Assembly: GCA_963664225.1 (NCBI GenBank)
Contig: OY760937.1
Span: 3,232,001 to 3,296,000, forward strand
DNA from: Verrucomicrobiia bacterium
GTDB taxonomy: Bacteria; Verrucomicrobiota; Verrucomicrobiia; Limisphaerales; UBA1319
Direction: 5' to 3'
Length of the DNA stretch: 64,000 bases
Shown piece by piece: positions 3,896 to 61,144 of this stretch (positions are counted from its first letter, which is position 1; each line of letters starts with the position of its first letter). Position numbers and translations under genes: made by a program. A model generated the notes under the pieces. The model saw only the letters and a list, made by a program, of their open reading frames with translations, ran no database searches and was not told the DNA's origin.

Positions 3896-4105
3896 GGGTG
3901 CATGACAGAATTTCTCGATAAAAAAAGAACTCTTGATGAACCCCCTCTCTCCGGCTCTCTCCCCCCTCGTGCCAATTCAGGTTTTGGGGCGAGAGTGACG
4001 AATCGCGCGATCGGTATTTTGGACAGGCTGTGTTCATTCGCCCCAAGCACTTCCATGTCGTTTTTAACGCCTCTTTCCATTCCTGAAGAATTTTGTCCTG
4101 CCCCT
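3896..4105 (-). mobile_element. MITE-like element, copy A (~210 bp)
   Basis: Left TIR gggtgcatgacagaatt and right TIR aattttgtcctgcccct. Flanks tccgattt / tccaattt resemble a decayed TSD. The right end matches the family leader (acaaaattcttcag on the minus strand). Confidence 0.7.
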
Positions 4106-4173
4106 CCAATTTTTCCTCCTCCAATTTGGCCATTGACGCCGCCGGTGGTTTCTGGGGATTTTAGTGCTGACTT

Positions 4174-5772
4174 ATGGCTAAAATGCAACGAGCGCTGCTT
4201 TCCGTATTTGATAAAACCGGATTGATCCCGTTCGCCCAGGCGCTGGCGGAAGAGGGCATCGAATTGATTTCCACCGGCGGCACGGCCAAGGCCCTGCGCG
4301 AGCACGGATTGACGTGCACGGACCTGAGCGATTACACCGGGTTCCCGGAGATGCTGGATGGACGTGTCAAGACGTTGCATCCCAAGGTTCACGGCGGCCT
4401 GCTGTTCATCCGCAACAATCCGTCCCACGAGGCGGCTGTGGCCAAACACGGCATCAAACCCATCGACCTGGTGGTGGTGAACTTGTATCCCTTTGAGCAA
4501 ACGGTTTCCAGGCCGGGCGTGACCCTGGCGGAGGCCATTGAGAATATTGACATCGGCGGCCCCTCGATGCTCCGCAGCGCCAGCAAGAATCATGAGAGCG
4601 TGACGGTGCTGATGGATCCGGCGGATTACCCCACCGTGCTGGCCCAGATCAAGGCCACGGGTAACACGACCCTCGAACTGCGCCGCAAACTCGCCGCGCG
4701 CGTTTTCGCCCGCACCTCGGCCTACGACGCCGCCATTGCGGCTCACTTGATCAAGGTGTTCGGTGCGCAAAGTGCCGTTCCCGCCGCCACCGCCCCAGAA
4801 GCCGTCGCGGTCAAGCCGGTCAGCGTGATGCCCGCCAGTCTGGTTCTGGATATTCCCCAGGCCCAGGAATTGCGTTACGGGGAAAATCCGCATCAAAAAG
4901 CGGCGCTCTACGGCAATTTCCAACAGTATTTCCAGCAGATCCACGGCAAGGAACTTTCTTACAACAACATCCTGGACCTGACGTCTGCCGCGCAGCTCAT
5001 TGCCGAGTTCACGGGCGAGTTGCCCACGCTGGCCATTCTCAAGCACACCAATCCCTGCGGCATGGGGCAGGGGCCCACGCTCAAGGACGCGTGGGACAAA
5101 GCCTTCGCCACGGATCGCCAGGCGCCCTTTGGCGGGATCATCGCGGTCAATCAGGTGCTCGACGGACCCTGTGCCGCCGTGATTGCCGAGATTTTCAGCG
5201 AGGTCATCATCGCTCCCGATTTCAGCACCGAGGCCCTGGACATTTTGCAGAAGAAGAAAAACCTGCGCCTCATCCGCATCATCAAGGATATCCGCACCTC
5301 CCGTCCCTTCGATCTGCGCAGCGTGGGCGCGGATTCGTATCTGATGCAGGAGCGGGATTTGAAGACCGTCAAGGAATCCGAGCTGACCGTCGTGACCCGG
5401 CGCGCGCCGACCGCCGCCGAACTGCGCGCGCTGCTCTTTGGCTGGCGCGTGGTCAAGCATGTCAAATCCAACGCCATCGTGTATGCGGCCGCGGACCGGA
5501 CGCTGGGCATTGGCGCGGGTCAGATGAGCCGGGTGGATTCCAGCCGCATCGCGGTGTGGAAGGCCGGTGAAGCCAAACTCTCGCTCAAGGGCAGCGTGAT
5601 TTGCAGCGACGCCTTTTTCCCATTCCCCGATGGTTTGATCGCCGCCGGAGAAGCGGGAGCCACGGCGGCCATTCAGCCCGGCGGTTCCAAGGGCGACAAG
5701 GATGTCATTGCCGCCGCCGACGCACGGGACATGGCCATGGTCTTTACCGGTTGCCGCCATTTCCGGCACTAA
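4174..5772 (+). CDS. purH: Bifunctional AICAR formyltransferase / IMP cyclohydrolase
   Basis: RALLSVFDKTG, GRVKTLHPKVHGG, IDIGGPSM, LRYGENPHQ, SDAFFPF, C-terminal RHFRH. Confidence 0.98.
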   Translation: MAKMQRALLSVFDKTGLIPFAQALAEEGIELISTGGTAKALREHGLTCTDLSDYTGFPEMLDGRVKTLHPKVHGGLLFIRNNPSHEAAVAKHGIKPIDLVVVNLYPFEQTVSRPGVTLAEAIENIDIGGPSMLRSASKNHESVTVLMDPADYPTVLAQIKATGNTTLELRRKLAARVFARTSAYDAAIAAHLIKVFGAQSAVPAATAPEAVAVKPVSVMPASLVLDIPQAQELRYGENPHQKAALYGNFQQYFQQIHGKELSYNNILDLTSAAQLIAEFTGELPTLAILKHTNPCGMGQGPTLKDAWDKAFATDRQAPFGGIIAVNQVLDGPCAAVIAEIFSEVIIAPDFSTEALDILQKKKNLRLIRIIKDIRTSRPFDLRSVGADSYLMQERDLKTVKESELTVVTRRAPTAAELRALLFGWRVVKHVKSNAIVYAAADRTLGIGAGQMSRVDSSRIAVWKAGEAKLSLKGSVICSDAFFPFPDGLIAAGEAGATAAIQPGGSKGDKDVIAAADARDMAMVFTGCRHFRH

Positions 5773-5798
5773 TACAACCAAAGCCGCTTTCGAAATAC

Positions 5799-5878
5799 CG
5801 GTAGGGCGAGGCTCCCGCCGAGCCATCATATTATGTCGGCTTGTCGAAGAAAGGCTCGGCGGGAGCCTCGCCCTACCG
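5799..5878. repeat. GTAG-type REP doublet (REPIN-like), perfect 26-bp inverted repeat
   Basis: cggtagggcgaggctcccgccgagcc (5799-5824) and ggctcggcgggagcctcgccctaccg (5853-5878). Confidence 0.85.
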
Positions 5879-6002
5879 TGCTCATGCGCCGATAACAGGC
5901 GGGTGCGGATGAGTCCGTCGCGTGCTTTTCGCGTTGCAGGCCCCGCGTCCACTTGCGGCTTGTATAAATGGCTTCAATGTATTATTCTCCAAGGCAGGAT
6001 AT

Positions 6003-9688: not shown

Positions 9689-10691
9689 GGGCTCAGGACA
9701 AAGTTCTCCAGCAACCAGAAAAAGACCAAAAAATGTCAATGGAGTATATAGGGTGACCGGTGTCTTCGGAGCGCCGGTCTCCTGACCGGCTTACGGTGTT
9801 CTCGAACCCAACGTTTTCAAATGCCCCGCGATTCCCGCACGCCGGTGTCTTCGGAGCGCCGGTCTCCTGACCGGCTTACGGTGTTCTCGAACCCAACGTT
9901 TTCAAATGCCCCGCGAACCCCGCACGCCGGTGTCTTCGGAGCGCCGGTCTCCTGACCGGCTTACGGTGCTCTCAAACCCAACGTTTTCAAATGCCCCGCG
10001 AACCCCGCACGCCGGTGTCTTCGGAGCGCCGGTCTCCTGACCGGCTTACGGTGCTCTCAAACCCAACGTTTTTAAATGCCCCGCGAACCCCGCACGCCGG
10101 TGTCTTCGGAGCGCCGGTCTCCTGACCGGCTTACGGTGTTCTCAAACCCAACGTTTTCAAATGCCCCGCGAACCCCGCACGCCGGTGTCTTCGGAGCGCC
10201 GGTCTCCAGACCGGCTTACGGTGTTCTCAAACCCAACGTTTTCAATGCCCCGCGAACCCCGCACGCCGGTGTCTTCGGAGCGCCGGTCTCCTGACCGGCT
10301 TACGGTGCTCTCAAACCCAACGTTTTTAAATGCCCCGCGAACCCCGCACGCCGGTGTCTTCGGAGCGCCGGTCTCCTGACCGGCTTACGGTGCTCTCAAA
10401 CCCAACGTTTTTAAATGCCCCGCGAACCCCGCACGCCGGTGTCTTCGGAGCGCCGGTCTCCTGACCGGCTTACGGTGTTCTCGAACCCAACGTTTTCAAA
10501 TGCCCCGCGAACCCCGCACGCCGGTGTCTTCGGAGCGCCGGTCTCCTGACCGGCTTACGGTGTTCTCGAACCCAACGTTTTCAAATGCCCCGCGATTTCC
10601 GCATGCTGGTTCAGTCGTTGCCGCAAAACCGATTTAAATTCAGCGCACGGCCATGGCTCTTTTCCACACTCCTGGATTTTGTCATGCTCCC
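9689..10691 (+). mobile_element. MITE-like element, copy B, carrying 85-bp array 1
   Basis: Left TIR gggctcaggacaaa plus leader (aagaccaaaaaat...ggagtatata); trailer ttttccacactcctg...tttgtcatgctccc. No matching TSD was seen. Confidence 0.7.
9756..10604 (+). repeat. Tandem array 1: 10 copies of an 85-bp hairpin-rich unit
   Basis: Unit gccggtgtcttcggagcgccggtctcctgaccggcttacggtgttctcgaacccaacgttttcaaatgccccgcgaaccccgcac; starts at 9756, 9841, 9926...10520. Confidence 0.97.
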
Positions 10692-15166: not shown

Positions 15167-16603
15167 GGGGCTGTAAAAATAATTGTGTAAGTGGCCTGAG
15201 AGAGATGAAAGGATTAACGACATGGCCATTACCGATGAAGTGCTAAACGAACTGCTTAAAGATTATCAGAAGCCCGAAGATTTATTGGGCAAGGATGGGA
15301 TCTTCAAGCAACTGCAGAAGCGGCTGCTGGAGAAGGCAATGGGAGCGGAGTTGACGGTACATTTGGGTTACGACAAGCATGACCCGGCGGGCCGCAACTC
15401 GGGCAACTCGCGCAACGGCACCAGTCCCAAGACCCTCAAGGGAGAGTTTGGTCACCTGGAGCTGGCGACGCCCCGGGATCGCAACGGAACCTTTGAGCCG
15501 CTGATCGTGGCCAAGGGGCAACGCCGGTTCGAGGGATTTGACCAAGCGATCCTCAGTCTGTATTCGCGTGGCATGACGACGCGGGAGATTGAAGGGCACC
15601 TGTTGGACATATACGGGGTGGAGGTGTCGCCGACTCTGGTCTCGCAAGTGACCGAGGCGGTGTGCGCTGATGTGAAGGTCTGGCAGGACCGACCACTGGA
15701 GGAAGTTTACCCCATTGTCTATTTTGATGCGCTCTGGGGCAAGGTGCGGCAGGACGGTCAGGTGGCCAAGGTGGCGGTGTATCTGGCGCTGGGGATCACG
15801 ATGACCGGGCAGAAGGAGGTTCTGGGCATGTGGGCGGCTCACAGTGAGGGGGCCAAGTTTTGGCTGCATGTGCTGACGGAGCTTAAAAACCGGGGAGTAA
15901 AGGACATCTTTATTGGCTGCGTGGATGGGATTAAAGGCTTCCCTGAAGCGATGGAAACGGTCTTTCCGGCGACCCAGGTGCAGCTCTGCCTGGTGCACAT
16001 GGTGCGTAATTCGCTCAGCTACGTGGGATGGAAGGAGCGCAAAGCGGTGGCCGCCGATTTGAAGGCGATTTATCGGGCGGCGACGGTGGCCCAGGCCGAG
16101 CAGGCGCTGGAGGCTTTTGCCCAAAAGTGGGACAAAAAATACCCATCGATCAGCAAGAGTTGGCGGGCGCACTGGCCGGAACTGATCACGTTTTTGAAGT
16201 ATCCTGAAGAGATCCGCAAAGCCATTTATACGACCAATGCGATTGAGTCGGTGAACCGATCGCTGCGTAAAATCACCAAGAATCGGGGCGTTTTTCCAAA
16301 CGAGGAATCCCTGCTCAAACTCTATTATCTGGCGCTGGAACGGGCGGCCAAAAAGTGGACCATGCCCATCCACAATTGGGGCCAGGCGCTGAACCGATTT
16401 GCCATTGAATTTGGGGACCGGATGCCCCAGTTGGCTTGAGCCGCCATGAAAACTGGATACGCAAGCCCATTTAACCGCAGGGGGCGCGAGCTAAGGCTCA
16501 AAGCTCGCCCCCTGCTGGTTCTATCTCGCTGCGAAAACGCAGGGAGTCATAACAACAAAAAACAAAACTAAAAAATCACTTACACAGTTTTCTTTACAAA
16601 ACC
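15167..16603 (+). mobile_element. Complete IS256-family element with 27-bp imperfect TIRs and an 8-bp TSD (GCAAAACT)
   Basis: IRL ggggctgtaaaaataattgtgtaagtg; IRR cacttacacagttttctttacaaaacc; gcaaaact at 15159-15166 and 16604-16611. Confidence 0.93.
15222..16439 (+). CDS. IS256-family (Mutator-like) transposase
   Basis: NSRNG, PRDRNGTFEP, YPIVYFDA, ELKNRGVKDI, QLCLVHMVRNS, IYTTNAIES. Confidence 0.97.
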   Translation: MAITDEVLNELLKDYQKPEDLLGKDGIFKQLQKRLLEKAMGAELTVHLGYDKHDPAGRNSGNSRNGTSPKTLKGEFGHLELATPRDRNGTFEPLIVAKGQRRFEGFDQAILSLYSRGMTTREIEGHLLDIYGVEVSPTLVSQVTEAVCADVKVWQDRPLEEVYPIVYFDALWGKVRQDGQVAKVAVYLALGITMTGQKEVLGMWAAHSEGAKFWLHVLTELKNRGVKDIFIGCVDGIKGFPEAMETVFPATQVQLCLVHMVRNSLSYVGWKERKAVAADLKAIYRAATVAQAEQALEAFAQKWDKKYPSISKSWRAHWPELITFLKYPEEIRKAIYTTNAIESVNRSLRKITKNRGVFPNEESLLKLYYLALERAAKKWTMPIHNWGQALNRFAIEFGDRMPQLA

Positions 16604-43403: not shown

Positions 43404-43454
43404 TTACGTTGCAGGCGGTCAGGCCGCCCGCAGGAGATCAGGAAGAAGTTTTGG

Positions 43455-43598: not shown

Positions 43599-43957
43599 AG
43601 TTTCAAGGTGTCGAATCCATCTCAAGACATGGATTAAGCTAAACCAGGGAATTTAAGGCGTAAATTGATTATTCACATACCACCAGACGCGCGAACGATT
43701 GGGCGGAGAAGGAGCGATCAAATGCCTCGAATCAACGGGTGCAGCGAACGGGAGACAGCTTGTTGTGCATAAAACAAGGTATGCTATTTTAAGCCGTCTG
43801 CCCTTTCTGTTGCGCTGAACTTAAAGGTGAGTGCTTCGGCGATAGTCCTTGATAAATAACCACATCTCTGGTTTCATATCAGCATGGCAGAAGGACAGGT
43901 CACCGGTTCTTCCTGTGCATGGACTCACGCATTATTACGATGATCAGCTGATTACGC

Positions 43958-44386: not shown

Positions 44387-44429
44387 ACACCCAAACACAT
44401 GATGGGGAAAGGGAAGTTGGTTTTTGGAC

Positions 44430-44465
44430 AAAAAAAGGCGCGCTCTTTCGAACGCGCCTTTTTTA
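44430..44465. terminator. Bidirectional Rho-independent terminator after rne/rng
   Basis: aaaaaaaggcgcg-ctctttcgaa-cgcgcctttttt. Confidence 0.85.
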
Positions 44466-44499
44466 TTACGTTGCAGGCGGTCAGGCCGCCCGGGAAACA

Positions 44500-46464: not shown

Positions 46465-46465
46465 G

Positions 46466-47674
46466 TTAATAGGCTTTCCGATAATAATAGATGTTTTGCA
46501 GCATGCCGGCGGCGATCAACGAGCATAACACCGAGGATCCGCCATAGCTGAGCAGCGGCAGTGGTATTCCCGTCACGGGCATAATGCGTATGTTCATGCC
46601 GATATTAATAAAGACATGGCTCAGGAATAGTGTCACCACTCCCACGGCCAATAGTTTCCCCAGGCGATCGCGCGCCTGGCCGGCGGTTCTCAGTCCGGCA
46701 AATAGAACCACGGTGTACAGCGCGATCACGACCACGCTGCCCACAAATCCTTTCTCCTCGGCAATGACGGAGAAAATGAAATCGTTGTGCGCCACTCCCC
46801 GTGGCAAAAAACCCAGGCGGATCTGGTCGCCCTTGCACCAGCCCTTGCCAAAAAATCCTCCGGATCCCACGGATATGAGCGCCTGGCGCACATTATAGGA
46901 ATCGTTGAATTGCTGGATGCGCGCCAGACGCCGGACCTCGGGGCTGGCGTCCGCCGGGGCGTATTCCTGCCCAAAATAAACGAGCAGGCGGCGCTTCTGG
47001 TAATTCTCCAGCTTGATCTGCCAGCCCACCGGCGCATACAGGATGTCCACCAGGATCAACCCCACCAGCAGCGCCGAGCCGCCGATGAACCGCCGCAGGA
47101 AACGCACGGGCACCCCGGCCACATACATCATGATCATGCCCACCGGCAGCAGCACCAGCGCGGAACCCAGGTCCGGCTCCTTGAGGATGAGCACGAACGG
47201 CAGCAGGGTCAGACCCAGGCCCTTCCAGAAAACCCCCGACTGCCGCAATTCCTCCACAGGTCGGCTCAGGAAATGGGCCTGTGCAAAGATGAAGGCCAGC
47301 TTGGCGAATTCCGATGGCTGGAACTGGAATAAGCCCATGTTGATCCATCGGCGCGCCCCCCATCGGATCGTCCCGATGCCCGGAATCAGGACCGCTATGA
47401 GAAGCAGAATCATGATCCAGTAGTAAACTAGCGCCCATCGCGCCCAGACCCGGTAATCCATGATGCAGAAGAAAAACGCCATCAATGTTCCCAGCCCGAA
47501 CCAGACGACCTGTTGAAAGGCCAGTTGCCGGTACCAGGGCACGTCGGAAAACGTGTCGCGCGCGCTGGTGGCACTGTAAATAAAGGTCACCCCCACCAGG
47601 AACAATCCCAGCAAGGCCAGACCCAGCGGCCAGTCCACCCGCGATTCGCGTTCGTTGAGGGTTCTCTCGTACAT
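46466..47674 (-). CDS. rodA: Rod shape-determining SEDS protein
   Basis: GARRWI, QPSEFAK, EPDLGSAL, HNDFIFSVIAEEKG, PVTGIPLPLLSYGGSS; downstream of mrdA. Confidence 0.95.
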   Translation of the reverse strand: MYERTLNERESRVDWPLGLALLGLFLVGVTFIYSATSARDTFSDVPWYRQLAFQQVVWFGLGTLMAFFFCIMDYRVWARWALVYYWIMILLLIAVLIPGIGTIRWGARRWINMGLFQFQPSEFAKLAFIFAQAHFLSRPVEELRQSGVFWKGLGLTLLPFVLILKEPDLGSALVLLPVGMIMMYVAGVPVRFLRRFIGGSALLVGLILVDILYAPVGWQIKLENYQKRRLLVYFGQEYAPADASPEVRRLARIQQFNDSYNVRQALISVGSGGFFGKGWCKGDQIRLGFLPRGVAHNDFIFSVIAEEKGFVGSVVVIALYTVVLFAGLRTAGQARDRLGKLLAVGVVTLFLSHVFINIGMNIRIMPVTGIPLPLLSYGGSSVLCSLIAAGMLQNIYYYRKAY

Positions 47675-47700
47675 CGCTCAGGTGCTCATTCGACGCATGC

Positions 47701-49671: not shown

Positions 49672-49676
49672 GGCTC

Positions 49677-50324
49677 TCAGGTGCGTCCGCGCACAATCTC
49701 GCGGTCTTTGCGAAAGGTCGATTCCGTGACCACGGCGTAATTAAACATAATCCCCAGTCGGTCGAACAAACCGAACACCACCGGCCCGGCCAGTGCCCCC
49801 CCAAACGCCATCACCAGCAGGGTCCACCAGGAACCCCAACCGGCCAGCGGCCCCAGGTCCCGCAGGCCCGGTGCGATGGGATTCAATTCGATCGGTTGGG
49901 CCAGATCGGGATTGCCTTCAGCCCAAAGCGTGGAGACTTCGGGGCGATTCAGATTCAGCGTTGAAAGCAGGAACAGGCCGATCAGGGCCGCGCCCAGACA
50001 GGCCGCGCCGCTGATGATGAACTGGGCCACCCATTGATCGCGCAACACCAGTTCCCGGAAATGATAGGCCGCAAATCCCACCAGCCAGAGCGGCAGAATA
50101 CTCGCCCCCAATGGATTGCGGGAAAGGGTGTCGAAGACCAGCCCGCCGGCAATGGAAAGAATGGCCAGGGTCTTCAGGTTCAAGCGCAGCGCCGCATAAA
50201 TCGCCAGCACGGGCAGCAAATCCACCTGCACTCCCAGCCAGCGGCGCGGGACATTGATCACGGATTCCAAAAAAACCACCACAATGGCGGCCAGCACGAG
50301 CAATGCGGTGTTGGTCCAGTTCAT
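49677..50324 (-). CDS. mreD: Rod shape-determining protein MreD
   Basis: Hydrophobic protein between mreC and mrdA (DLLPVLAIY...GGLVFDTLS). Confidence 0.85.
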   Translation of the reverse strand: MNWTNTALLVLAAIVVVFLESVINVPRRWLGVQVDLLPVLAIYAALRLNLKTLAILSIAGGLVFDTLSRNPLGASILPLWLVGFAAYHFRELVLRDQWVAQFIISGAACLGAALIGLFLLSTLNLNRPEVSTLWAEGNPDLAQPIELNPIAPGLRDLGPLAGWGSWWTLLVMAFGGALAGPVVFGLFDRLGIMFNYAVVTESTFRKDREIVRGRT

Positions 50325-51130
50325 GGAAGCAGCACCCACACTTCCTCCAGCGAATTGAAATTCACCGCCAGCTTCACCCGCGCCTCGGCATACAGGCCAA
50401 ATTCGACCATGCGGTAATCGAGGATTTTCCCAATGACGATGCCCGGAGGAAACACGCCGCCCTGGCCGCTGGTCAGGACCGACTGTCCGGGTTTAAGAGC
50501 GCTGTTGCGGGATAAAAAGGTTAAATCGACGATGCTGTTATCCGTCGGATCCGCCGGATTTGGAACGATCACGCCGGTATTATCCCGGGATTCGAGGATT
50601 CGCGCCGCCACGCGGCAGGAGGGATCCCCCGCCAGCACCACCTGGGAATGCGCCGAACCGACCTCCGAAATCCGGCCCACCAGTCCATCCGGGCAGAGAA
50701 CGGTCAGGTTGGGCCGCATTCCGTCCTTGAGACCCGCGTCGATCTGGACCGCGCGCCACCAATTGGCCGGATCGCGTCCCACGACACGGGCGAATTTGAC
50801 CTTCCATGCCGTCGGTTTTGGAGCGCCCAGAAATTCGCGCAACCGGGTGTTTTCGCGAAGCAATTCCTCCCCCTGTGCCGCCAGAATGCGCAATCGCTGG
50901 TTTTCCTGGCGCAATTCCGCCGTCTCGGCCAAAAGGGTGCTGCGGGAAACGGCGGCGTCCGCCGTTTTTTGGGTTAGGTTATGGGAGACGCCGGCCAGAC
51001 CGAAGAGGGGCAGAAAAATGCCGCCCAAAGTCACCTTCAGTCGCGCAGTCGCCCTGCCGGGCAGGCTGGCCATTGCCAGCGCCATCAGCAAAACGACAAT
51101 TGTTATTATAAAAGACGGCCGTTTCAACAT
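50321..51130 (-). CDS. mreC: Rod shape-determining protein MreC
   Basis: TM plus coiled coil (LRQENQRLR), ARVVGRDP, GLVGRI, TSGQGGVFPPGIVIG. Confidence 0.93.
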   Translation of the reverse strand: MLKRPSFIITIVVLLMALAMASLPGRATARLKVTLGGIFLPLFGLAGVSHNLTQKTADAAVSRSTLLAETAELRQENQRLRILAAQGEELLRENTRLREFLGAPKPTAWKVKFARVVGRDPANWWRAVQIDAGLKDGMRPNLTVLCPDGLVGRISEVGSAHSQVVLAGDPSCRVAARILESRDNTGVIVPNPADPTDNSIVDLTFLSRNSALKPGQSVLTSGQGGVFPPGIVIGKILDYRMVEFGLYAEARVKLAVNFNSLEEVWVLLP

Positions 51131-51181
51131 CGCCTCACCCATGCGTCATGGGGGTGAACGCGAGAAGAAATCAAAGACGGA

Positions 51182-52207
51182 TCAGGTTTTCGAAAAGGCA
51201 AGCCGTTTCAAAAATTGGAGCTCTTGCAGCACGCGGCCCGTGCCTTCGGCCACCGCGCTCATCGGATCGTCCGCAATATGCACGGGCAGACCGGTTTCCT
51301 CGGCCACCAGTCTCTCAATCCCGCGCAACAAGGCGCCGCCTCCAGCCAGAATAATGCCCCGATCCACCAGATCGGAGGCCAATTCAGGGGGGCATCGCTC
51401 CAAAGTCAGACGAACGGATTCCAATATGCTCGAAAGGGGTTCTTTAAGGGCTTCCCGAATTTCTTCAGAACGGACGGTTAAAGTCTTTGGAAGACCGGCG
51501 CTTAAATCGCGCCCCTTCACTTCCAAGGTCAATTCCTGTTCCAATGGATACGCTGATCCAATACGAATCTTGATTTCTTCTGCGGTGCGTTCACCGATCA
51601 TTAAATTGTAGGCTCGTTTCATGTGAGCCACGATCGTCTCGTCGAACTCGTCTCCCCCCACCCTCAAGCTCCGGCTAAAGACTATGCCCGCCAGAGAGAT
51701 GATGGCGATCTCACAAGTTCCACCGCCAATATCGACGATCATGTTGCCCGCCGGTTCATGGACAGGCAGGCCAACGCCAATGGCCGAAGCCATGGGTTGT
51801 TCGATTAAATAGACTTCCCGGGCACCCGCGTGGGTGGCCGAATCCTTCACAGCCCGTTTCTCGACTTCGGTGATTCCCGAGGGAACGGCTATCACCACCC
51901 GGGGCGCAATCAGCTTTCGATGATGCACTTTCTGGATGAAATAGCGAAGCATGGACTCGGTCACTTCGAAATCCGCGATGACTCCGTCCTTCATCGGCCG
52001 AATGGCGACGATGTTTCCCGGAGTGCGCCCCAACATGCGTTTGGCTTCCGTGCCCACAGCCAGAACGTTGGTCGTCCCGGCCTCGATGGCCACCACGGAA
52101 GGTTCCCGCAAGACGATCCCCTGGTCACGCACATACACCAGGGAGTTTGCGGTCCCGAGATCGATCCCAATATCGTTGGAAAACAGGCCTTTTAATTGTG
52201 CGAACAT
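51182..52207 (-). CDS. mreB: Actin-like rod shape-determining protein
   Basis: [38 protein letters not shown]. Confidence 0.98.
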
Positions 52208-52376
52208 GAACTGTGCCTAAAACATCGCCAACTTATGGAAGTTCGCACGCCAGGGTCAAGTTAATAAGCAAAACAAATGCAAAACTTTCGCAACCCTGCC
52301 TTTTAACCCGAAATCCGAAATAAGAAGAGTTCAGATGATTGCGTCAGATGGGCCGTTCCTGTTTCCGAAATCGGTT

Positions 52377-55247
52377 TTAACGCTCCCGCGCAGCCGTTCC
52401 CCACACGTCCACTCGCTGGCCCAAGGTGTCGCCGGGCAAAATCACGCCAAACCAGGGTTCGTTGATGTTGGACACACGCCCCTTCCATGTCACCGTGCGC
52501 GTCTCGATGGGGTTCAAATCCAACGACTTGGTCTCGCCATCGACGATCAGATTGGTCGTCCGCAGATGGAATTGATGATTGCCGTGGCCTCGGGTGTTAA
52601 CGTTAATGGTCACTTCTCCGGCTTGCGAGGTGGTGCTGGTGGCTTCGACCGTGAAGGTTTCCCTCAAATCCAGATAGCGTCGGCTGCCCGGTAGCACCGT
52701 AATCGTCTGGCTGCGTTCGCCATGCGTGATCCGGTAGCGGCCCTGGGGCACTTCAATGACAAATTCCCCCGATTTTTGATTGGCGGCGGTCGAATAAACC
52801 CGCCCGGTCTCCACTTCGGTGAATTCGACCATCCGGTTGATGTCGGACCGACCCACGCCCGAAACGACCGCCGGACCGTTCAGGTCGATCATCAGCGAGA
52901 GCCATCGACTCGAGGGATGCACCCAAACCTCCTTATAATTGTAGCAATTTGCCGCCGGCCAGTAAGGTTTATCGTTATTGGCCCGCGTTTCGATGCCTAC
53001 CGGCAGGGAACCGGCCATATCGCCGGACAGCGCGGTGTATTGGGGCGCATAATCGTAACCTTCGCCGTACATGGTGCTCTGGGCGAATGGATTGCGACCC
53101 ACAACCCATTGCAATTCCAACTGGGCCAGCGCGCCCGAATCCAGATCGCGCCGGAGTTGCGCCGCTGTGGAAAGCGCCTTGGTTTGGGAAAGGGTCGTGC
53201 CGTGGTTGCCCCGGAAGGAGGTCCAGGCGGGGAACATTTTCAAATAATACCGGCTGCTCAACGAAAAGCCGTTGCGCACTTGTTCCTGATACCAGGGTTC
53301 CTTGTTTTCCTCCAAATCGTAAATCCCGCTGGGAATCATTCCGTAAGGATCGGTGTAACGCGCGGTGGCCTTCAGGTATTCCGAATACAGGGCCACGGCG
53401 GAATACCATTGCATCCATTGGGCTTCATTGGGAAAGGTCAGGCAAAGATCCGAAAGGGCGGTGATGGCCGCCTGGTCGTGTCCCCGATGGGTGTAATGCA
53501 GGAGATGGTCCCGCTGGGGTGTGGTGTAAAAATAACCCGCCAGCGGCACGCGCCAGGGTTGGTATTCCCGTTGCTGGCATTTAAGAATCACCTCGGCCAG
53601 TTCCATCGCCTTGGCGGCATATTTTTTCTCCTGCGTGGCGTGATAAAGTTCCATCGACGCCCCGGCTCCGGCGGCCGCCAGTTCAAGATTGGGCGCCCCC
53701 AGTTTTTTCAACGCAAATTCCCAATCCTCCTGCGCGGCCTGAAGGCAACGGGCGGACAGCGCGGGATCGCGATCCCGGAAAAAGGCCGCCGCCAGGGCTT
53801 CGGTGGAGGCGCCGGTAAAACTCTCGAACGGGCTGTCGTGAACATCCCCCTGCGTATCGTCCACGGTGCCCATGATGCCGTCCGTCCAGTAATCCATCGT
53901 GGCCCAGGTGACGCGCGACCCATCGCCAAACCGGGTCTTCAACACCCAGTCCAGGCCCCAGCGCGCTTCCTCCACCAATCGCCGGGCCAGTGGATCCTGA
54001 TTTGCGGCAACGCGCTCGGCGGCAGTTTGTTTTGCGTCTTTCTTCAGTGCCGGTCTTTGGAGCAATGCCGCGTTTTGATTGAGTTGATCGGCCAGGGCCA
54101 GCATGGCGTAAGTGGCTTCAGCGGTGTTGATCAAACCCTGGGAAAGGTCTCCGGCATCGTGCCAGCCGCCATTGATGCCGATGTTCTTTCCATTATGCGC
54201 GGCCTGCCAGTCCTTGTGGCAGACATCGTGAATGCCCGCAATCGCGGCGCCGCAGCGTTCGCAGTAGAAAAAGTTAATCGTCTTCCAGATGGTCTCGCGC
54301 CAGACGTCGGCGCTGATGCGAAACTCGGAGGTCACCACCGAACCGGCCTTGATGACATATCGGCCCGGCTCGCGGATGTCGGAGAAATCCAGCTTCTGAT
54401 GCGTGCCCACAGCCGTGGCCACCGTGCGCACCGGACGCCTGGCCACGGTGACGCCCGTGTCCAGATTGATGACCTCGAAGTATTCGGATTTCAAATCACT
54501 GCCCAAAGCGCTCTTGGGCCCGCCCGCCTCGTATCCCGTGGTGCTGAAGGCGATGGCGCCGGGCTGAACAGTCCACCCCTCATAATGATCCTCCACCACC
54601 TGCTGGAGTTCCAGCCGGTCGATGTCGTAGCAAACCTGCGTGGCCGCACCCGGCTCATTGCCTTGCAGGCGGTAAATGAAACTCACCCCCGTGACCCTGT
54701 CCCGGGACAAATGCGGAATTTCCCAGAGCACCTGGTTCCATTGGTTGGGCTTGAGGAGGAAGAAATTCAGGCCTTCGCGACCATAGGCATCGGGCACTTT
54801 GACCTCCCCGTCGTTATGCAACACGACCAGCATGGAGATGACCTTGAACCCCGGCAGTGTGGGATAAACCCAGAAAGAAAGGCGGTTGTAGGCGCTCCAG
54901 TCCTCGTTGTCCACATTGCGCCGGACCTCCGCCTCGCCGAAGGGACGGCCGGTGACGGTGCTGGGCTTTGGGCCGACGGTTGGGGAGGTCAGCCGGATGG
55001 ATTGCGCGCCGTCGCGAGTGCGCTCCGTGGTGAAACTTATCGCCCCAAATCCGTTGTGGATCCAGTGGGCCGGGGTTTCCATATCGTCCACCAGACGCGA
55101 GGCGATCACGCCCTTGGCTTCCATCCAGCGGGTGGGCGCGGCGTTGGATTCGTTGATTTGCATGGGCATGGCGGGCGGCATCTCCCATTCCCGTGCCTGC
55201 ACCCCCCATACACACAACCCCAATAAAAAAACCAAAATACTTGCCAT
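52377..55247 (-). CDS. Secreted GH9-like glycoside hydrolase with accessory beta-sandwich domains
   Basis: Signal peptide; FFYCERCG, GGWHDAGDL, LVEEARWGLDWVLK, WVVGRNPF. Confidence 0.85.
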   Translation of the reverse strand: MASILVFLLGLCVWGVQAREWEMPPAMPMQINESNAAPTRWMEAKGVIASRLVDDMETPAHWIHNGFGAISFTTERTRDGAQSIRLTSPTVGPKPSTVTGRPFGEAEVRRNVDNEDWSAYNRLSFWVYPTLPGFKVISMLVVLHNDGEVKVPDAYGREGLNFFLLKPNQWNQVLWEIPHLSRDRVTGVSFIYRLQGNEPGAATQVCYDIDRLELQQVVEDHYEGWTVQPGAIAFSTTGYEAGGPKSALGSDLKSEYFEVINLDTGVTVARRPVRTVATAVGTHQKLDFSDIREPGRYVIKAGSVVTSEFRISADVWRETIWKTINFFYCERCGAAIAGIHDVCHKDWQAAHNGKNIGINGGWHDAGDLSQGLINTAEATYAMLALADQLNQNAALLQRPALKKDAKQTAAERVAANQDPLARRLVEEARWGLDWVLKTRFGDGSRVTWATMDYWTDGIMGTVDDTQGDVHDSPFESFTGASTEALAAAFFRDRDPALSARCLQAAQEDWEFALKKLGAPNLELAAAGAGASMELYHATQEKKYAAKAMELAEVILKCQQREYQPWRVPLAGYFYTTPQRDHLLHYTHRGHDQAAITALSDLCLTFPNEAQWMQWYSAVALYSEYLKATARYTDPYGMIPSGIYDLEENKEPWYQEQVRNGFSLSSRYYLKMFPAWTSFRGNHGTTLSQTKALSTAAQLRRDLDSGALAQLELQWVVGRNPFAQSTMYGEGYDYAPQYTALSGDMAGSLPVGIETRANNDKPYWPAANCYNYKEVWVHPSSRWLSLMIDLNGPAVVSGVGRSDINRMVEFTEVETGRVYSTAANQKSGEFVIEVPQGRYRITHGERSQTITVLPGSRRYLDLRETFTVEATSTTSQAGEVTINVNTRGHGNHQFHLRTTNLIVDGETKSLDLNPIETRTVTWKGRVSNINEPWFGVILPGDTLGQRVDVWGTAARER

Positions 55248-55311
55248 ATACCAATCAATTGTAACTAAAGAAAATTAATCCGCATTTCCATTATAGCACA
55301 AACCGGGGAAC

Positions 55312-56088
55312 TCAGGAAGGAAGGTTGTGTGCGGAAGCTCCGCGCACCTCGTCCGCCCAGTCGCTCACCGCCGCGCGCATTTGCACTCCGGCGTTCAATT
55401 TGGGCTTCACGAAACGCGGGGTGAACCAGGGGAAAGTGCCCACCAAATCCTGCGTCACCAGAATCTGCCCGTCGCAGTCCGGCCCCGATCCGATGCCGAT
55501 CGTGGGAATGGAAATCGCCCGGGTGATGTCCCGCGCCACAGGCGGCGTCACCAGTTCCAGCACAATGGCAAACGCCCCGGCATCCGTCAAAATCCGCGCA
55601 TCCTCGAGGAGGGCGTCCCGTTCCCGGTCCACCTTGCCTTTGATGTGATAACCGCCTTCCAGAAGCACGCTCTGGGGCAGCATTCCCAGATGGCCCAGGA
55701 AGGGAATGCCCGCTGTCACAATCGCGCGCACCTGTTTCTCAATCGTTTTGCCGCCCTCGGCCTTCACCGCCTCCGCCCCGGCCGCCACCAGACGCCGGGC
55801 ATTGGCCACCGCATCCTCCACGGTGTCGTAACTGTGAAACGGAAAGTCCGCCGCCAGCAGCGCCTGCGGCTTGGCCCGCGCCGCCGCTCGCACATGATGC
55901 TCCATCTCCGCCATCGTCACCCAGGTGGTGTCCGGATAGCCCAGCACCACCATTCCCAGGGAATCCCCCACCAAAATCAGGGGAATGCCCGCCTCGTCCA
56001 GCAACCGGGTCATGGGATAATCATAAGCGGTCAGGGACGCAATGCCCTGGCCCTTCATCTTCCGAATTATTTCCGCCGTAATCTTCAT
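55312..56088 (-). CDS. panB: 3-methyl-2-oxobutanoate hydroxymethyltransferase
   Basis: LTAYD, ILVGDSLGM, GHLGMLPQS, PTIGIGSG..CDGQILV. Confidence 0.97.
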   Translation of the reverse strand: MKITAEIIRKMKGQGIASLTAYDYPMTRLLDEAGIPLILVGDSLGMVVLGYPDTTWVTMAEMEHHVRAAARAKPQALLAADFPFHSYDTVEDAVANARRLVAAGAEAVKAEGGKTIEKQVRAIVTAGIPFLGHLGMLPQSVLLEGGYHIKGKVDRERDALLEDARILTDAGAFAIVLELVTPPVARDITRAISIPTIGIGSGPDCDGQILVTQDLVGTFPWFTPRFVKPKLNAGVQMRAAVSDWADEVRGASAHNLPS

Positions 56089-56159
56089 TACATTAACCGA
56101 CCAAGCATCCTACCGTGCAGCGGTTGAAACAAGAGGAAAGTGGAGGGGGACCCTTTGTT

Positions 56160-56479
56160 GGGTGCAGGACAAAATTCAGGAATCTGCTAAAAGCCTAAAC
56201 CGTATGAACCCAGCCAGAACGCCAGTCGGCGGTGTGGGGCATTAAGTCCGGCGCGGTGGCAGCTCCTAAAGCGTGCAAAAAATCCAGGGCTCGCAATACT
56301 CCTCCTTCTCCTGGGGGAGAAGGTGGGGATGAGGGCGGTCGTCCTTTCATATCTGACTTTTGCCGGACCCTCAATCGGCTCCCGTCCATTCCCGAAACTC
56401 TAGCTGTTTTTGTTTCGTATATACTCAAATGCCCTTTTAAAGGTCTTTTTCGCTTGCCGAAGAATTCTGTCATGCACCC
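56160..56479 (-). mobile_element. MITE-like element, copy F (320 bp), with a perfect 9-bp TSD CCCTTTGTT
   Basis: TIRs gggtgcaggacaaaattc / gaattctgtcatgcaccc; ccctttgtt at 56151-56159 and 56480-56488. The minus strand starts with the family leader (aattcttc...aaaaagacc...gagtatata). Internal REP-like ctccttctcctgggggagaaggtggggatgaggg (56302-56335). Confidence 0.88.
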
Positions 56480-56499
56480 CCCTTTGTTCCATCAGGTTT

Positions 56500-57423
56500 T
56501 TATCGTGCGCCCCCCACTGCAAGCGCATCACGCAGCGCGCCTTCGAGTGTCGGATGCAAAAACTCGAAACCGCCCTGAAGCAATCGCGCCGGTTGCGCCC
56601 TCTGGCTCGCCAGCAGAAGCCCATCGGCCATCTCGCCCAACACCAGTCGCAAAGCAAAAGCCGGTGCCGGAATCAATGCGGGCCGGTGCATCACCCCCGC
56701 AAGTATCCGGGTGAACTCCCGGTTGGTCACCGGCTCAGGCGCGCAGGCGTTAACTGGCCCCTGGTATCGATCAGACTCCACCAGCCGCAGAATCACCCGC
56801 GGCACATCCTCCAGCGCGATCCAGCTCCAGTATTGACGGCCATGGCCCATGCGTCCGCCCAGACCGAGCCGAAATGGCGTCAGCATCTGCGGCAGCGCGC
56901 CGCCCCGGCCATCGAGCACCATCCCCAGCCGCATGCGCGCCACGCGAATCCCCGCCGCACTCGCCGGTGCGGTCGCATCTTCCCACGCCTGCGCCACCTC
57001 CGCCAGAAATCCAGTCCCTTGAGAACTTTCCTCGGTCAACACCTCCGCCCCGCGGTCCCCGTAATATCCCAGACCTGATGCGCTCACGAGGACCTTTGGC
57101 GGGCGGCTCCATTCAACCATTTTCTCGCACAAAAACCGCGTGCCCACACGGCGGCTTTCGAGGATTTGTCGTTTCTTCGTCTCCGTCCATCGACCCGCGA
57201 TATTTTCCCCCGCCAGGTGAATGACCGCGTCAAAAGAAGAGTCGGAATCGATCCTGCATTGGCCTTGCTCCGGATCCCACCAGCAACCCGCAAGCGTCTG
57301 CCCTCCCTTGGTGCGCCGCAACGGCGTGACGCGATGTCCCAGCGACTCCAGATGAGCCGTTGCCGCCCGTCCGATGAACCCGCTCGCGCCGGTCATTAAA
57401 ATATGAAGCGATTGCTCCGCCAT
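56500..57423 (-). CDS. TIGR01777-family NAD-dependent epimerase/oxidoreductase (YfcH-like)
   Basis: MTGASGFIG, VIHLAGENIA.RWT, GYYGDRG, GLGGRMGHGRQYWSWI. Confidence 0.93.
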   Translation of the reverse strand: MAEQSLHILMTGASGFIGRAATAHLESLGHRVTPLRRTKGGQTLAGCWWDPEQGQCRIDSDSSFDAVIHLAGENIAGRWTETKKRQILESRRVGTRFLCEKMVEWSRPPKVLVSASGLGYYGDRGAEVLTEESSQGTGFLAEVAQAWEDATAPASAAGIRVARMRLGMVLDGRGGALPQMLTPFRLGLGGRMGHGRQYWSWIALEDVPRVILRLVESDRYQGPVNACAPEPVTNREFTRILAGVMHRPALIPAPAFALRLVLGEMADGLLLASQRAQPARLLQGGFEFLHPTLEGALRDALAVGGAR

Positions 57424-57461
57424 GACACTTTGCCAATCCCTTGCCTCCTGCGCCGTCACCG

Positions 57462-57638
57462 CCACTCGTAGCGCCGACTTCCAGTCGGCCACAACCCATA
57501 TTTTCCTACGTCAGAATCGCAAATTTGCAATCGACCGCCCACTCGTAGCGCAGGCTTCCAGCCTGCCGTATCGCCGACTTCCAGTCGGCACCAGCCCACC
57601 TTTTCCTACGTCAGAATCCCAGATTTGCAATCGACCGC
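57462..57638 (+). repeat. Cluster of GTAG-type REP hairpins within a ~100-bp imperfect direct repeat
   Basis: gtagcgccgacttccagtcggc, gtagcgcaggcttccagcctgc and cgccgacttccagtcggc; ttttcctacgtcagaatc...atttgcaatcgaccgc at 57501 and 57601. Confidence 0.8.
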
Positions 57639-57710
57639 TCGTTCGTGAATTCGCCGTTTACCCGCGGAGTTTTGTTCCCACCCGCGAATATCACGCCCAC
57701 TAGCCCCAAC

Positions 57711-58784
57711 TCACGGAACCATTCCCGAGAACTTGAGCACTTGCAGGCCCACGTAGCCCAGAAATCCGGTGACAGGCAGTGTGAGCACCCAGGTCCACAC
57801 CATGCGCTCGACAATGCCCCACTTGACCGCGCTGAAGCGTTTGGTGGCTCCCACGCCCATGATGGAGGAGGAGATGACGTGCGTGGTGGAGAGTGGAATG
57901 CCCATGTGGCTGGCCACTTGAATGACCGTGGCGGCCGTCGTTTCCGCGGCGAAACCATGGATCGGCTGCAGCTTGACCATTCTATGGCCCAGCGTGGCAA
58001 TGATGCGCCACCCGCCCACCGCGGTTCCTGCCGCCATGGTCAGGGCGCAGATCACTTTCACCCAGCCATGCACCTCGAACTTGGGGGTTTTGAGAAAATC
58101 GAGCCATGCGGGCAATTGATCGAAGGTTCCCGCGTTGGTGGCGGTAAAAAGGCCCAGCGCGATGATCCCCATGGTTTTTTGGGCGTCGTTGCCGCCATGG
58201 CTGAACCCCATGAAACAGGCGCTCACAATCTGCAGTTTGCCAAACAACATGGTGATCGTATGGGGCGCCCACTTGCGCAGGAGCAGGATGAGAAATCCCA
58301 TCAGGACGAACCCAAGCACAATGCCGCACAAGGGCGAGGTGATCATGGGAATGACCACCTTGGTCCACAGGCCCTCGGTTTTATGGGTCGTGGCGTTATA
58401 GACCGACCAGTGGATCACCGACCAGTTGCCTCTCGCCGAGGCCAGCGTCGCCCCGCACAGCCCGCCGATCAGCGCGTGGCTCGAGCTGGAGGGCATTCCA
58501 AGCCACCAGTTGAGCACTCCCCAGATGATGGCCGCCATCAAGGCGCAAAGGATCGTGGGCAACGTGACAAACTGGGTGTCCACCATTCCCTTTCCAATCG
58601 TCGTGGCCACCGCCGTGCCGGTGAACGCGCCCAGCATGTTGAATAGGGCCGCCATGATCACCGCCTGCCGCGGCGTCAGAACCTTGGTGGAAACAACCGT
58701 GGCGATGGAATTGCCCGTATCGTTCGAGCCGTTGATGTACTCGAACACCAGCGCCACTACCAGAACGCACAAGATGAGTATCAT
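57711..58784 (-). CDS. PiT-family inorganic phosphate transporter
   Basis: NGSNDTGNSIATVV, GMPSSSSHALIGG, HGGNDAQK, GIPLSTTH. Confidence 0.95.
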   Translation of the reverse strand: MILILCVLVVALVFEYINGSNDTGNSIATVVSTKVLTPRQAVIMAALFNMLGAFTGTAVATTIGKGMVDTQFVTLPTILCALMAAIIWGVLNWWLGMPSSSSHALIGGLCGATLASARGNWSVIHWSVYNATTHKTEGLWTKVVIPMITSPLCGIVLGFVLMGFLILLLRKWAPHTITMLFGKLQIVSACFMGFSHGGNDAQKTMGIIALGLFTATNAGTFDQLPAWLDFLKTPKFEVHGWVKVICALTMAAGTAVGGWRIIATLGHRMVKLQPIHGFAAETTAATVIQVASHMGIPLSTTHVISSSIMGVGATKRFSAVKWGIVERMVWTWVLTLPVTGFLGYVGLQVLKFSGMVP

Positions 58785-58802
58785 GGCTGATGGTGGCTTG
58801 CC

Positions 58803-59432
58803 TTAGGAGTGCTTCAACACGATATGAAAAACGATGTTGCCCGCGTCCCGGCAGCGGTCGATGACTTTCTCCAGCAGTTCGTACAGGTTCCGCAGGATGA
58901 TCACGCGCATCGGCTCATATTTCCCGCTGTAAAGCTCCTTCAGCAGTTCCAGCATCAGATTGTCGGCCTCGCCCTCGAGGAATTGCAGCCTCTCGTTTTG
59001 GTCCTTCGTCGTTTCCAGCTTGGGCTGCTTGCGCAGATCCTTCACCATTTGATGCACCGCGCTGGTGCATTGGGCCAGCAGTCGGGTCTGGCGTCCGAAA
59101 TCCTCCCCTTTGAGCCATTGCTGGCACAGCAGCAGCCGCTCGCCAAATTTCTCGACCGTCTTCGGTATCTTGTAAAGGGCGCTGGAAAGGGCTTCGATGT
59201 CTTCCCGCTCCAGCGGGGTCACAAACGTCTTGCACAGTTTCTCGGCAATCTCCTCCGTGATCTTTTTGTCTTTGCGGCGGGCCTGGATGAAATCGGCGAG
59301 GCCCTTCTCCACATCCTGACTCTTCAACATCTCCGTCAGCGCTTCGACGCTCCGGCACGACTGTTCGGCGCTCGCTTCGAGCATGTCGAAGAATTTGCCA
59401 TCCGAACCTAACAAGTGTTGCAGGGAAAACAT
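58803..59432 (-). CDS. DUF47 (PhoU-like) phosphate transport regulator
   Basis: TFVTPLEREDI, LEGEAD, LEKVIDRCRD; adjacent to the PiT gene. Confidence 0.92.
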   Translation of the reverse strand: MFSLQHLLGSDGKFFDMLEASAEQSCRSVEALTEMLKSQDVEKGLADFIQARRKDKKITEEIAEKLCKTFVTPLEREDIEALSSALYKIPKTVEKFGERLLLCQQWLKGEDFGRQTRLLAQCTSAVHQMVKDLRKQPKLETTKDQNERLQFLEGEADNLMLELLKELYSGKYEPMRVIILRNLYELLEKVIDRCRDAGNIVFHIVLKHS

Positions 59433-59632
59433 ATTCCCTCTTTTGTCACCGAATCGTAACAATAAAGCACGCAAATTCTGACTCTTCAGGCACCGTTCTT
59501 GCTGGCATGCCCGTTCTCCAAGTCTTCACCAAGGCCCGTTCCTGACCCAGGCGGTCCCTTTGGGCATGGATCTTCTTTCGGGATTGGTGTGTGAGAAATG
59601 CGCCTTGATGAAAGTTATTCTTAACGAAGAAC

Positions 59633-59662
59633 AAAAAAAGCACCGGGATGAAGCCCGGTGCT
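59633..59662 (-). terminator. Rho-independent terminator after ferritin
   Basis: aaaaaaagcaccggg-atgaag-cccggtgct. Confidence 0.85.
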
Positions 59663-59697
59663 AATCCGAGACCGTAAGCTCTCAGCAGAGCGGAGCC

Positions 59698-60195
59698 TTA
59701 GCTCTGCCCGCGTTTGCCGGCGTGATGGTCGAGTTGGAAAAGGCCGTTGCGGTTGTCGCCCACAAGTTCCAGTTTGACGACCAGATCCCCGACATTCTTT
59801 TCCTCTTCCACCTGTTCGTCCAGGAACCACTTCAGGAAGGACTGCGTGGCGAAATCCTTCTCCTCGCCCGCCAGTTCAAAAAGCGCGGAAATCGAGGCCG
59901 AAACCTTCTGCTCGTGGGCCAGGCTCGTCTGGAAGGCCTCCAGCACCGACTTGTATTCGCTCTTGGGTTCGGCTACCGCCTGGAGCTTGATCTTGCCGTT
60001 GCGCTCGGCGATGTATTTGAAGAATTTTTTGGCGTGCTCCAGCTCCTCCGAGTATTGGACTTCCATCCACTTCGCGAAGCCGGAGAACGGGGTCTGTTCG
60101 AAATAGGCTCCCATGCCCAGATAAACATAGGCCGAGGAGAATTCGAGGTTGAATTGGTTGTTCAGCGCCTTTTCTATTTTAGGAGATAATTTCAT
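59698..60195 (-). CDS. ftnA: Non-heme ferritin
   Basis: LNNQFNLEFSSAYVYL, EELEHA, HEQKV, FLKWFLDEQVEEE. Confidence 0.94.
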   Translation of the reverse strand: MKLSPKIEKALNNQFNLEFSSAYVYLGMGAYFEQTPFSGFAKWMEVQYSEELEHAKKFFKYIAERNGKIKLQAVAEPKSEYKSVLEAFQTSLAHEQKVSASISALFELAGEEKDFATQSFLKWFLDEQVEEEKNVGDLVVKLELVGDNRNGLFQLDHHAGKRGQS

Positions 60196-60202
60196 TCGCC
60201 GA

Positions 60203-60231
60203 AGCCTATCACAAAAAGCGGTTTTTTGCAA
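60203..60231 (-). promoter_or_regulatory. Putative sigma70 promoter of the ferritin gene
   Basis: TTGCAA-N17-TAGGCT with an extended -10 TG on the minus strand. Confidence 0.6.
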
Positions 60232-60296
60232 GGAGACAGAGATGATTAAGACCCGGTATTTTCTGGCCATAAAAGCACAATAAACCGGCGCTGGCC

Positions 60297-61057
60297 GCAT
60301 GTGTCTTCGGTGCGCCGGTCTCCAGACCGGCTTACGGTGTTCTCGAGCCCAATGTTTTCAAACACACCGTGATCCCCGCACGCCGGTGTCTTCGGTGCGC
60401 CGGTCTCCTGACCGGCTTAGCGTGTTCTCGAACCCAACGTTTTCAAACACATCGTGATCCCCGCATGCCGGTCTTCGGAGCGCCGGTCTCCTGACCGGCT
60501 TACGGTGTTCTCGAACCCAACGTTTTCAAACACACCGTGATCCCCGCATGCCAGTCTTCGGAGCGCCGGTCTCCTGACCGGCTTACGGTGTTCTCGAATC
60601 CAACGTTTTCAAACACACCGTGATCCCCGCATGCCGGTGTCTTCGGTGCGCCGGTCTCCAGACCGGCTTACGGTGTTCTCGAACCCAACGCTTTCAAACA
60701 CATCGTGATCCCCGCATGCCGGTGTCTTCGGTGCGCCGGTCTCCAGACCGGCTTACGGTGTTCTCGAACCCAACGCTTTCAAACACATCGTGATCCCCGC
60801 ATGCCGGTGTCTTCGGAGCGCCGGTCTCCTGACCGGCTTACGGTGTTCTCGAACCCAACGTTTTCAAATACACCGTGATCCGCGCATGCCGGTGTCATCG
60901 GAGCGCCGGTCTCCAGACCGGCTTACGGTGTTATTGAACCCAACGTTTTCAAACACACCGTGATCCCCGCACGCCGGTGTCTTCGGTGCGCCGGTCTCCT
61001 GACCGGCTTAGCGTGTTCTCGAACCCAACGTTTTCAAACACATCGTGATCCCCGCAT
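60297..61057 (+). repeat. Tandem array 3: 9 copies of the 85-bp unit (array-2 subtype)
   Basis: Unit starts at about 60297, 60382, 60467, 60550, 60633, 60718, 60803, 60888 and 60973. Confidence 0.96.
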
Positions 61058-61144
61058 GCTAGTTCTGCCGTTGCCTCAACGCCGTTTAAGAATCAGCCCA
61101 CTGCCATGGCTGTTTTCCACACTCCTGATTTTTGTCATGCACCC
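61058..61144 (+). mobile_element. MITE-family trailer and right TIR (copy G; left end missing)
   Basis: gccgttgcctcaacgccgtt...aatcagcccac...ttccacactcctgatttttgtcatgcaccc matches the array 1 and array 2 trailers. Confidence 0.8.

Follow-up and report, generated by a model that had tools for sequence, protein, structure and literature searches.

A 64,000-nucleotide stretch of the genome of a Verrucomicrobiia bacterium (GenBank assembly GCA_963664225.1, contig OY760937.1) raises the question of what kind of element places the same terminal motif around segments with quite different interiors, among them tandem arrays of an 85-bp unit. This stretch, hereafter the window, comprises bases 3,232,001-3,296,000 of one 5.78-Mb contig. 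A preliminary description of it had proposed a family of non-autonomous transposons that capture interchangeable hairpin cargo and are served by a helper transposase located elsewhere. We report here that the segments appear to be miniature inverted-repeat transposable elements (MITEs) of an ISKra4-family insertion sequence, and that one subfamily probably carries the repetitive extragenic palindromic (REP) module of a REP-associated tyrosine transposase (RAYT), amplified to as many as 18 copies.

A Terminal Repeat Defines a Genome-wide Family

The strict end motif GGGYGCABGACARA matches seven times in the window, at 3896(+), 34124(+), 39680(+), 41349(-), 56160(+), 56479(-), and 61144(-), against 0.01 matches expected from shuffled sequence. 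Further ends are decayed: those at 9689 and 10691 each deviate at 2 of 18 positions, as does the end at 4105, while the end at 29436 fails the motif and represents a decayed leader of the subfamily called type III below (profile match at genome positions 3261437-3261499, E 3.6e-12). The end positions first read from the window are thus borne out. Across the genome the strict motif occurs 70 times, and an 18-base form, GGGYGCABGACARAATTC, with up to two mismatches, identifies 159 ends compared with 2 in a reversed-genome control. Pairing neighboring plus and minus ends yielded 53 elements of 165-3254 bp, mostly 200-330 bp, whose 9-bp flanks match at 9/9 positions in 13 pairs, at 8/9 in 5, and at 7/9 in 10. 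A family of non-autonomous transposons with a 9-bp target duplication, as had been proposed, therefore extends well beyond the window. The conserved leader (..AAGACC..GAGTATATA) at one end and trailer (TCCTGA..TTTGTCATGCACCC) at the other, also part of that proposal, are both present in the window elements.

The family comprises at least three subfamilies. Type I (320 bp, 30 BLAST loci) and type II (approximately 205 bp, 17 BLAST loci) contain CCCTC-rich hairpins, and in type III at least one 85-bp unit stands between a leader and a trailer.

An ISKra4-Family Insertion Sequence Has Matching Ends

A search for a copy of the end motif enclosing a transposase had been suggested, and such an element exists: a 1,755-bp insertion sequence at genome positions 5,219,103-5,220,857, located 1.99 Mb downstream of the window, carries the MITE-type repeat at both ends. 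Its transposase matches the ISKra4 profile NF033572 with an E value of 6e-73 and 246.3 bits (244.9 bits in the genome search; cut-off 205), and the gene is present in a single copy in the genome. The IS256 element of the window (~15167-16603, one of four genome copies) has different ends, beginning GGGGCTGTAAAAATAATTG, and is flanked by an 8-bp duplication, GCAAAACT; the expectation that the helper is not this IS256 but lies elsewhere was therefore correct. The GTATATA box lies at offset 56 in both the insertion sequence and the MITE leaders, and the MITE leader is the counterpart of roughly the first 65 bp at the left end of the insertion sequence. Terminal repeats of this kind and a 9-bp duplication are typical of the ISKra4 family. 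As the end sequence, the duplication length, and the partner element all fit, we assign the segments, on sequence criteria, to a MITE family of an ISKra4-family insertion sequence.

Insertion sequences of this kind are also present in other genomes. Among 80 related loci retained from these, the majority titled Verrucomicrobiota, 49 showed at least one candidate end pair, and about two dozen of these loci hold 1.72-1.81-kb elements with similar GGG-initial ends and perfect 9/9 duplications. In the partner element the transposase frame is preceded by a short DUF6788 frame, and the two overlap across the sequence A AAA AAG. An A8-9(G) run, approximately 345-370 bases from the left end, is found in 17/17 copies from this and other genomes, most of which have the two-frame layout while 3 have a fused frame, which suggests that the layout probably reflects a programmed frameshift or slippage rather than damage.

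The 85-bp Unit Resembles the REP of a RAYT Gene

At the core of the 85-bp unit lies an invariant hairpin, cGGAGyGCCGGTCTCCwGACCGGCTTA, whose stem measures 7 bp and whose flanks are fixed. Its 18-nt hairpin core occurs in 105 copies at 26 loci, compared with none in the control. In most copies the flank, TTAC on the unit strand and GTAA on the other, deviates from the GTAG tag by one base. At loci with several copies the units all run head to tail on one strand, without the inverted doublets known as REPINs; inverted doublets of a similar hairpin were seen only in other genomes. The same hairpin brackets, at genome positions 3015560 and 3016502, a 275-aa gene at 3,015,629-3,016,456 that matches the RAYT profile NF047646 with 98.9 bits (cut-off 80) and is the sole match above the cut-off in the genome. 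To the left of the first of these hairpins lies a decayed type III leader including the terminal repeat, as seen in the alignment and by profile (E 4e-15), and to the right of the gene are further units. We conclude from this arrangement that the 85-bp module is the REP of an HUH tyrosine transposase, which would recognize the hairpin; the unit first described as REP-like does contain a genuine REP.

Among 60 relatives the closest homolog of the RAYT gene, 60% identical and from another family of the order, also abuts a similar hairpin. Leader, trailer, and terminal repeat were absent from 13/13 RAYT-homolog loci in other genomes. The REP/RAYT pair would therefore be older, and its junction with a MITE end would be particular to this lineage, as far as searched. 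Among 20 diverged units no pair with compensatory change was found, and the invariant hairpin was the sole predicted structure, which fits a protein-recognized DNA site better than an RNA. A tRNA identity of the unit was rejected (ARAGORN reported none), and no Rfam family was reached at the gathering score; a permissive match to the cobalamin riboswitch scored 18.8 bits against a gathering score of 31.5.

Two further RAYT-like genes, at genome positions 172268-172648 and 4676460-4676822, score just below the cut-off (70-74 bits) and have their own GTAG-tagged REP families of 41 and 87 copies; the gene at 4676460-4676822 has tandem arrays with a period of ~35 bp on both sides. Members of these two families lie inside paired MITEs in 1/41 and 0/87 cases, and for the CCCTC hairpins of types I and II no link to a RAYT was found in the flanks of 9 Y1-transposase and 2 RAYT-like genes. 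Capture of REP modules is thus not a general property of these MITEs. A single REP class is MITE-borne, and a general capture of interchangeable cargo, as first proposed, is not supported.

Type III Elements as Putative Mobile Units and the History of Their Arrays

Four type III elements retain both ends. Their flanking duplications match at 8/9 positions in a 239-bp copy with one unit, at 7/9 in a 12-unit and in an 18-unit copy, and at 2/9 in a 10-unit copy. Related elements, 80-87% identical to the queries, occur in one metagenome, where one contig carries a 226-bp single-unit copy with a perfect 9/9 duplication and another carries a 3-unit array followed by trailer and end. The junction between leader and REP recurs at 6 loci and the junction between unit and trailer at at least 17.

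In a tree of 105 units, growth in place is indicated by the arrays at 2584k and 1997k, each a single clade, and by those at 505k and 1978k, which come close to being one each. Four large arrays are united in a clade of 49 units with a support of 95/96; three of them retain the terminal repeat at both ends, and the fourth retains it at the trailer end alone. The units of the window arrays at 39680 and 60301 are intermixed with each other and with three units of the 1989k array, suggesting that some arrays were copied or exchanged between loci. Altogether, the tree is consistent with arrays that mostly grew in place after insertion, with some copied between loci, and does not support the initial picture of shells carrying their modules in.

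Orientation of Type III Elements with Respect to Replication

dnaA lies at 2.99 Mb, and the gene-strand bias and the GC skew each reverse at about 3.0 Mb and again at about 1.25-1.4 Mb. We set the strands of the REP loci by hand against the origin and terminus placed from these features. Leader-to-trailer orientation coincides with the inferred fork direction at 24/26 REP loci, or at 14/16 when loci within 25 kb are merged, and 18/19 trailer matches with E <=1e-8 are oriented in the same way. Types I and II show no bias (14/30 and 8/17 with the inferred fork, respectively). A lagging-strand bias is a property of IS200/IS605 elements.

Some peculiarities of the chromosome and of individual loci were observed alongside. 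The cumulative GC skew fails to close, with a net excess of G on the plus strand, and is flat from 1.4 to 3.6 Mb; the gene-strand bias implies very unequal replichores of ~4.0 and 1.75 Mb. At genome positions 2134342 and 3175510, type III units are both preceded by one and the same ~100-bp sequence that replaces the unit start, and one of these two is one of the two loci in opposite orientation.

Proposed Origin of the Elements and Alternative Explanations

We consider it likely that the window elements are ISKra4-derived MITEs of which type III carries the REP of a RAYT, amplified to up to 18 copies. The anatomy of the elements suggests the following course. The ISKra4 DDE transposase, made from two frames joined at the slippery run, would act in trans on the 18-21-bp terminal repeats (GGGYGCAKGACAAAATTC) and insert the MITE with a 9-bp duplication. 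An ISKra4 MITE end would have become joined to the RAYT/REP locus, and loss of the RAYT gene would have left a single-unit MITE of ~230 bp, which the DDE transposase may then have spread. At its new sites the REP module would have multiplied head to tail in place, up to 18 copies, with some arrays copied between loci. Amplification together with the replication-linked orientation of type III points to a putative process tied to the REP hairpin or to the RAYT. It is tempting to speculate that a DDE transposon took over a REP/RAYT system, with the REP now travelling as a passenger of an ISKra4 MITE instead of as a REPIN and with the hairpin or RAYT driving amplification and orientation; we hold this tentatively and regard it as rather doubtful, but if true it would place two unrelated transposition chemistries in relay on one element.

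Several observations weigh against the origin that we consider likely. The resident ISKra4 copy itself lacks a target duplication (2/9), and its left end is unlike the MITE leaders beyond the terminal repeat and the GTATATA box, so that the MITEs may descend from a variant now gone from this genome. At the RAYT locus the likeness to the trailer on the right side is weak, and the order of events given above is a reconstruction. As the type III leader is kept at only 6 loci and the trailer at at least 17, most type III loci are one-ended today. The orientation bias of type III is not predicted for a DDE transposase, since types I and II show none, and leaves room for a RAYT-driven route. The orientation count itself is limited in that origin and terminus were placed by means of dnaA, gene-strand bias, and a GC skew that is atypical. 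We found no empty sites in the 40 relatives searched, where the MITEs are absent and the divergence is too great for sites to be compared. Four public runs (41500-60250) all have the junctions of the 320-bp copy at 56160-56479 (copy F), with no joint across the site among the matches listed, and no transposition event was seen.

An alternative explanation is that the arrays are ordinary clusters of the REP/BIME type, which the RAYT would have produced and dispersed unaided, acting on single strands at the replication fork, so that the ISKra4 ends would be incidental, either because MITEs landed beside REPs or because REPs inserted into MITEs. The fork-linked orientation confined to type III and the leaders missing from most of its loci both speak for such an origin, as does another REP class, which is arrayed in tandem with a 35-bp period next to a RAYT-like gene of its own and involves no MITE. 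Also in keeping with it, the tandem REP arrays of Pseudomonas fluorescens SBW25 were reported, in the portion of the study consulted (PMC3116915), to change orientation with the replichore. Against it stand one leader-REP junction that recurs at 6 loci and one unit-trailer junction that recurs at 17 or more. Moreover, duplications of 7-9/9 bracket three of the four complete copies, with a chance of ~0.0013 per pair for a match of at least 7/9 by a binomial estimate, and the metagenome copy has a perfect duplication. We therefore regard an origin by RAYT alone as unlikely.

A different possibility is that the arrays encode a repetitive structured RNA, such as a multi-unit small RNA or a sponge, expressed from the leader, with the MITE as their vehicle. 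Two units fold better than shuffled sequences (z -4.5 on the plus and -4.1 on the minus strand), and the leader would derive from a promoter-bearing left end of the insertion sequence, where TTGCCA-17-TACAGT stands just before the start codon. However, we found no sigma-70-type promoter-like or terminator-like site in the type III or type I leaders and no Rfam match at the gathering score, and the diverged units conserve the hairpin alone, with no compensatory change, which makes this explanation very improbable. No RNA run contained more than 0.27 of the sampled words. Scarcely credible is the idea that the end motif is a half-site for a transcription factor or another protein unrelated to mobility. 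Paired ends do form an operator-like inverted repeat, but 13 pairs have perfect 9-bp duplications, and elements that encode a transposase have matching ends in this genome and in many others. Both findings contradict the half-site reading, which the preliminary description had named as one way in which its proposal might fail. The ISKra4-derived MITE, with type III as its REP-bearing form, remains the reading we prefer.

Relation to Known Systems

MITEs, ISKra4 elements, REP/RAYT systems, and tandem REP arrays are each already known. Like ISKra4 elements and the DDE-derived MITEs Nezha, Correia/NEMIS, and RUP, the present family has terminal inverted repeats, many non-coding copies, a fixed 9-bp duplication, and a full-length DDE-transposase partner with matching ends; it differs in that one subfamily carries, in as many as 18 repeats, the hairpin putatively recognized by another transposase, of the HUH type. 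In listings of the literature outside subscription journals, no ISKra4-derived MITE turned up among what were resistance-plasmid and survey papers, and no MITE with a RAYT-type REP array was listed. The BOX elements of Streptococcus pneumoniae, with their boxA-boxB(n)-boxC structure, are likewise modular miniature elements with fixed ends and variable tandem middle modules, whereas here the middle module is an 85-bp RAYT-type REP and a partner transposase is identified.

In the consulted portions of the work on REP, BIME, and REPIN sequences and their RAYT (TnpA_REP), which covers the SBW25 arrays (PMC3116915) and REPtrons (PMC3733652), the REP is, as here, a G+C-rich hairpin with fixed flanks. 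The system described here is likewise present at high copy number (~105), with the hairpin on both sides of its only RAYT gene; read on the other strand, the hairpin begins with GTAA before the stem, close to the GTAG tag. Head-to-tail arrays of up to 12-18 units whose orientation switches between replichores are a further feature in common. Unlike REPINs, the units form no inverted doublets, and unlike other REPs nearly all copies lie within frames with DDE-type terminal repeats and 9-bp duplications. A frame of this kind also stands at the start of the RAYT locus.

How REPs spread and why ordered tandem arrays form are general open questions, and ordered arrays are taken, in the consulted portion of the P. 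fluorescens study (PMC3116915), to indicate a second mechanism of cluster formation. The type III elements set a REP unit in a frame whose mobility can be read from ends and duplications, so that insertion and amplification become separable on one element. Their REP-free sibling MITEs, which show no orientation bias, provide a built-in control, and the roles of DDE transposase, RAYT, and replication become separately testable. The findings also document, for a little-studied phylum, a MITE family derived from ISKra4 whose parent element probably undergoes programmed frameshifting.

Elements within the Window

Three of the window elements carry arrays in which Tandem Repeats Finder counts 9.9 units (9757-10595), 18.1 units (39747-41279), and 9.0 units (60301-61059), in agreement with the 10, 18, and 9 units first noted. 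The largest, a type III MITE on the plus strand at 39680-41349 (copy E), consists of a leader (39680-39746), eighteen 85-bp REP units, and a trailer (~41278-41349), and has a 7/9 target duplication (AAATGGGTT / AATTCGGTT). The type III MITE at 9689-10691, also on the plus strand, has a leader (9689-9756; profile E 1.7e-16), ten 85-bp REP units (9757-10605), and a trailer (10606-10691; E 2.3e-24); its ends are decayed and, at 2/9, no duplication is present. The element at 60301-61144 (plus strand) has no leader and is composed of nine 85-bp REP units and a trailer (61059-61144; profile E 9.5e-25) ending in the terminal repeat. At 29436-29572 (plus strand) the decayed type III leader is followed by one REP unit (genome position 3261517) without a trailer, and at 34124-34141 (plus strand) a solo terminal repeat, off at 1 of 18 positions and without a partner end, lies upstream of a gene for an iron-type alcohol dehydrogenase.

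Copy F, at 56160-56479 on the minus strand, is a type I MITE of 320 bp with CCCTTTGTT on either side as a perfect 9-bp duplication, and is 99% identical to the genome copy at 3870300-3870619. Contigs from the four public runs end 30 bases inside both ends of copy F, and the depth inside the element is ~14-18 times that of the flanks. In four genomes of the same family, one of them of the same genus, the coding flanks are 67-75% identical and the flanks of copy F lie on different contigs. The 210-bp element at 3896-4105 (copy A; minus strand), type II by BLAST, has a CCCTC-rich hairpin interior and its leader-type end at the right; its terminal repeats are off at 1 and 2 of 18 positions. The target duplications initially reported stand for copy F (9/9) and copy E (7/9), and for copy A in so far as 7/8 bases abutting both ends can be read by eye, although in strict register only 3/9 match.

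Nested Insertions and Other Features

Elements of 1.8-2.4 kb bounded by the terminal inverted repeats were considered as autonomous copies and rejected, as they are MITEs in which other insertion sequences are nested. The 2,400-bp element at genome positions 2347449-2349848 is a type I MITE in which a DDE_Tnp_1 insertion sequence is nested; the latter has ends of its own (CGCACTTTACCCC) and the 6-bp duplication ATATGA. Elements of 1,873 and 1,849 bp contain IS110-family genes. Interiors do differ by subfamily. The larger elements owe their contents to nested insertion sequences and not to cargo. At genome positions 3179237-3181085 and 5568799, IS110-family elements are found at an identical junction (..CCCCT | GATACGGTTTCCACAGG..), which in both cases lies within a CCCTC hairpin, in two different type II MITEs; this suggests that they target the type II hairpin site-specifically. 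Three MITE leaders, at genome positions 797421, 3668873, and 5025420, are broken at one point just before the GTATATA box, by an element that ends in a GTAGGCCGGGTGCC-type hairpin. Finally, window positions 31940-32830 contain an IS200-type TnpA gene (32055-32501) between two direct copies of ~70 bp (31940-32010 and 32720-32790), as well as small GGATGCC-type hairpins.

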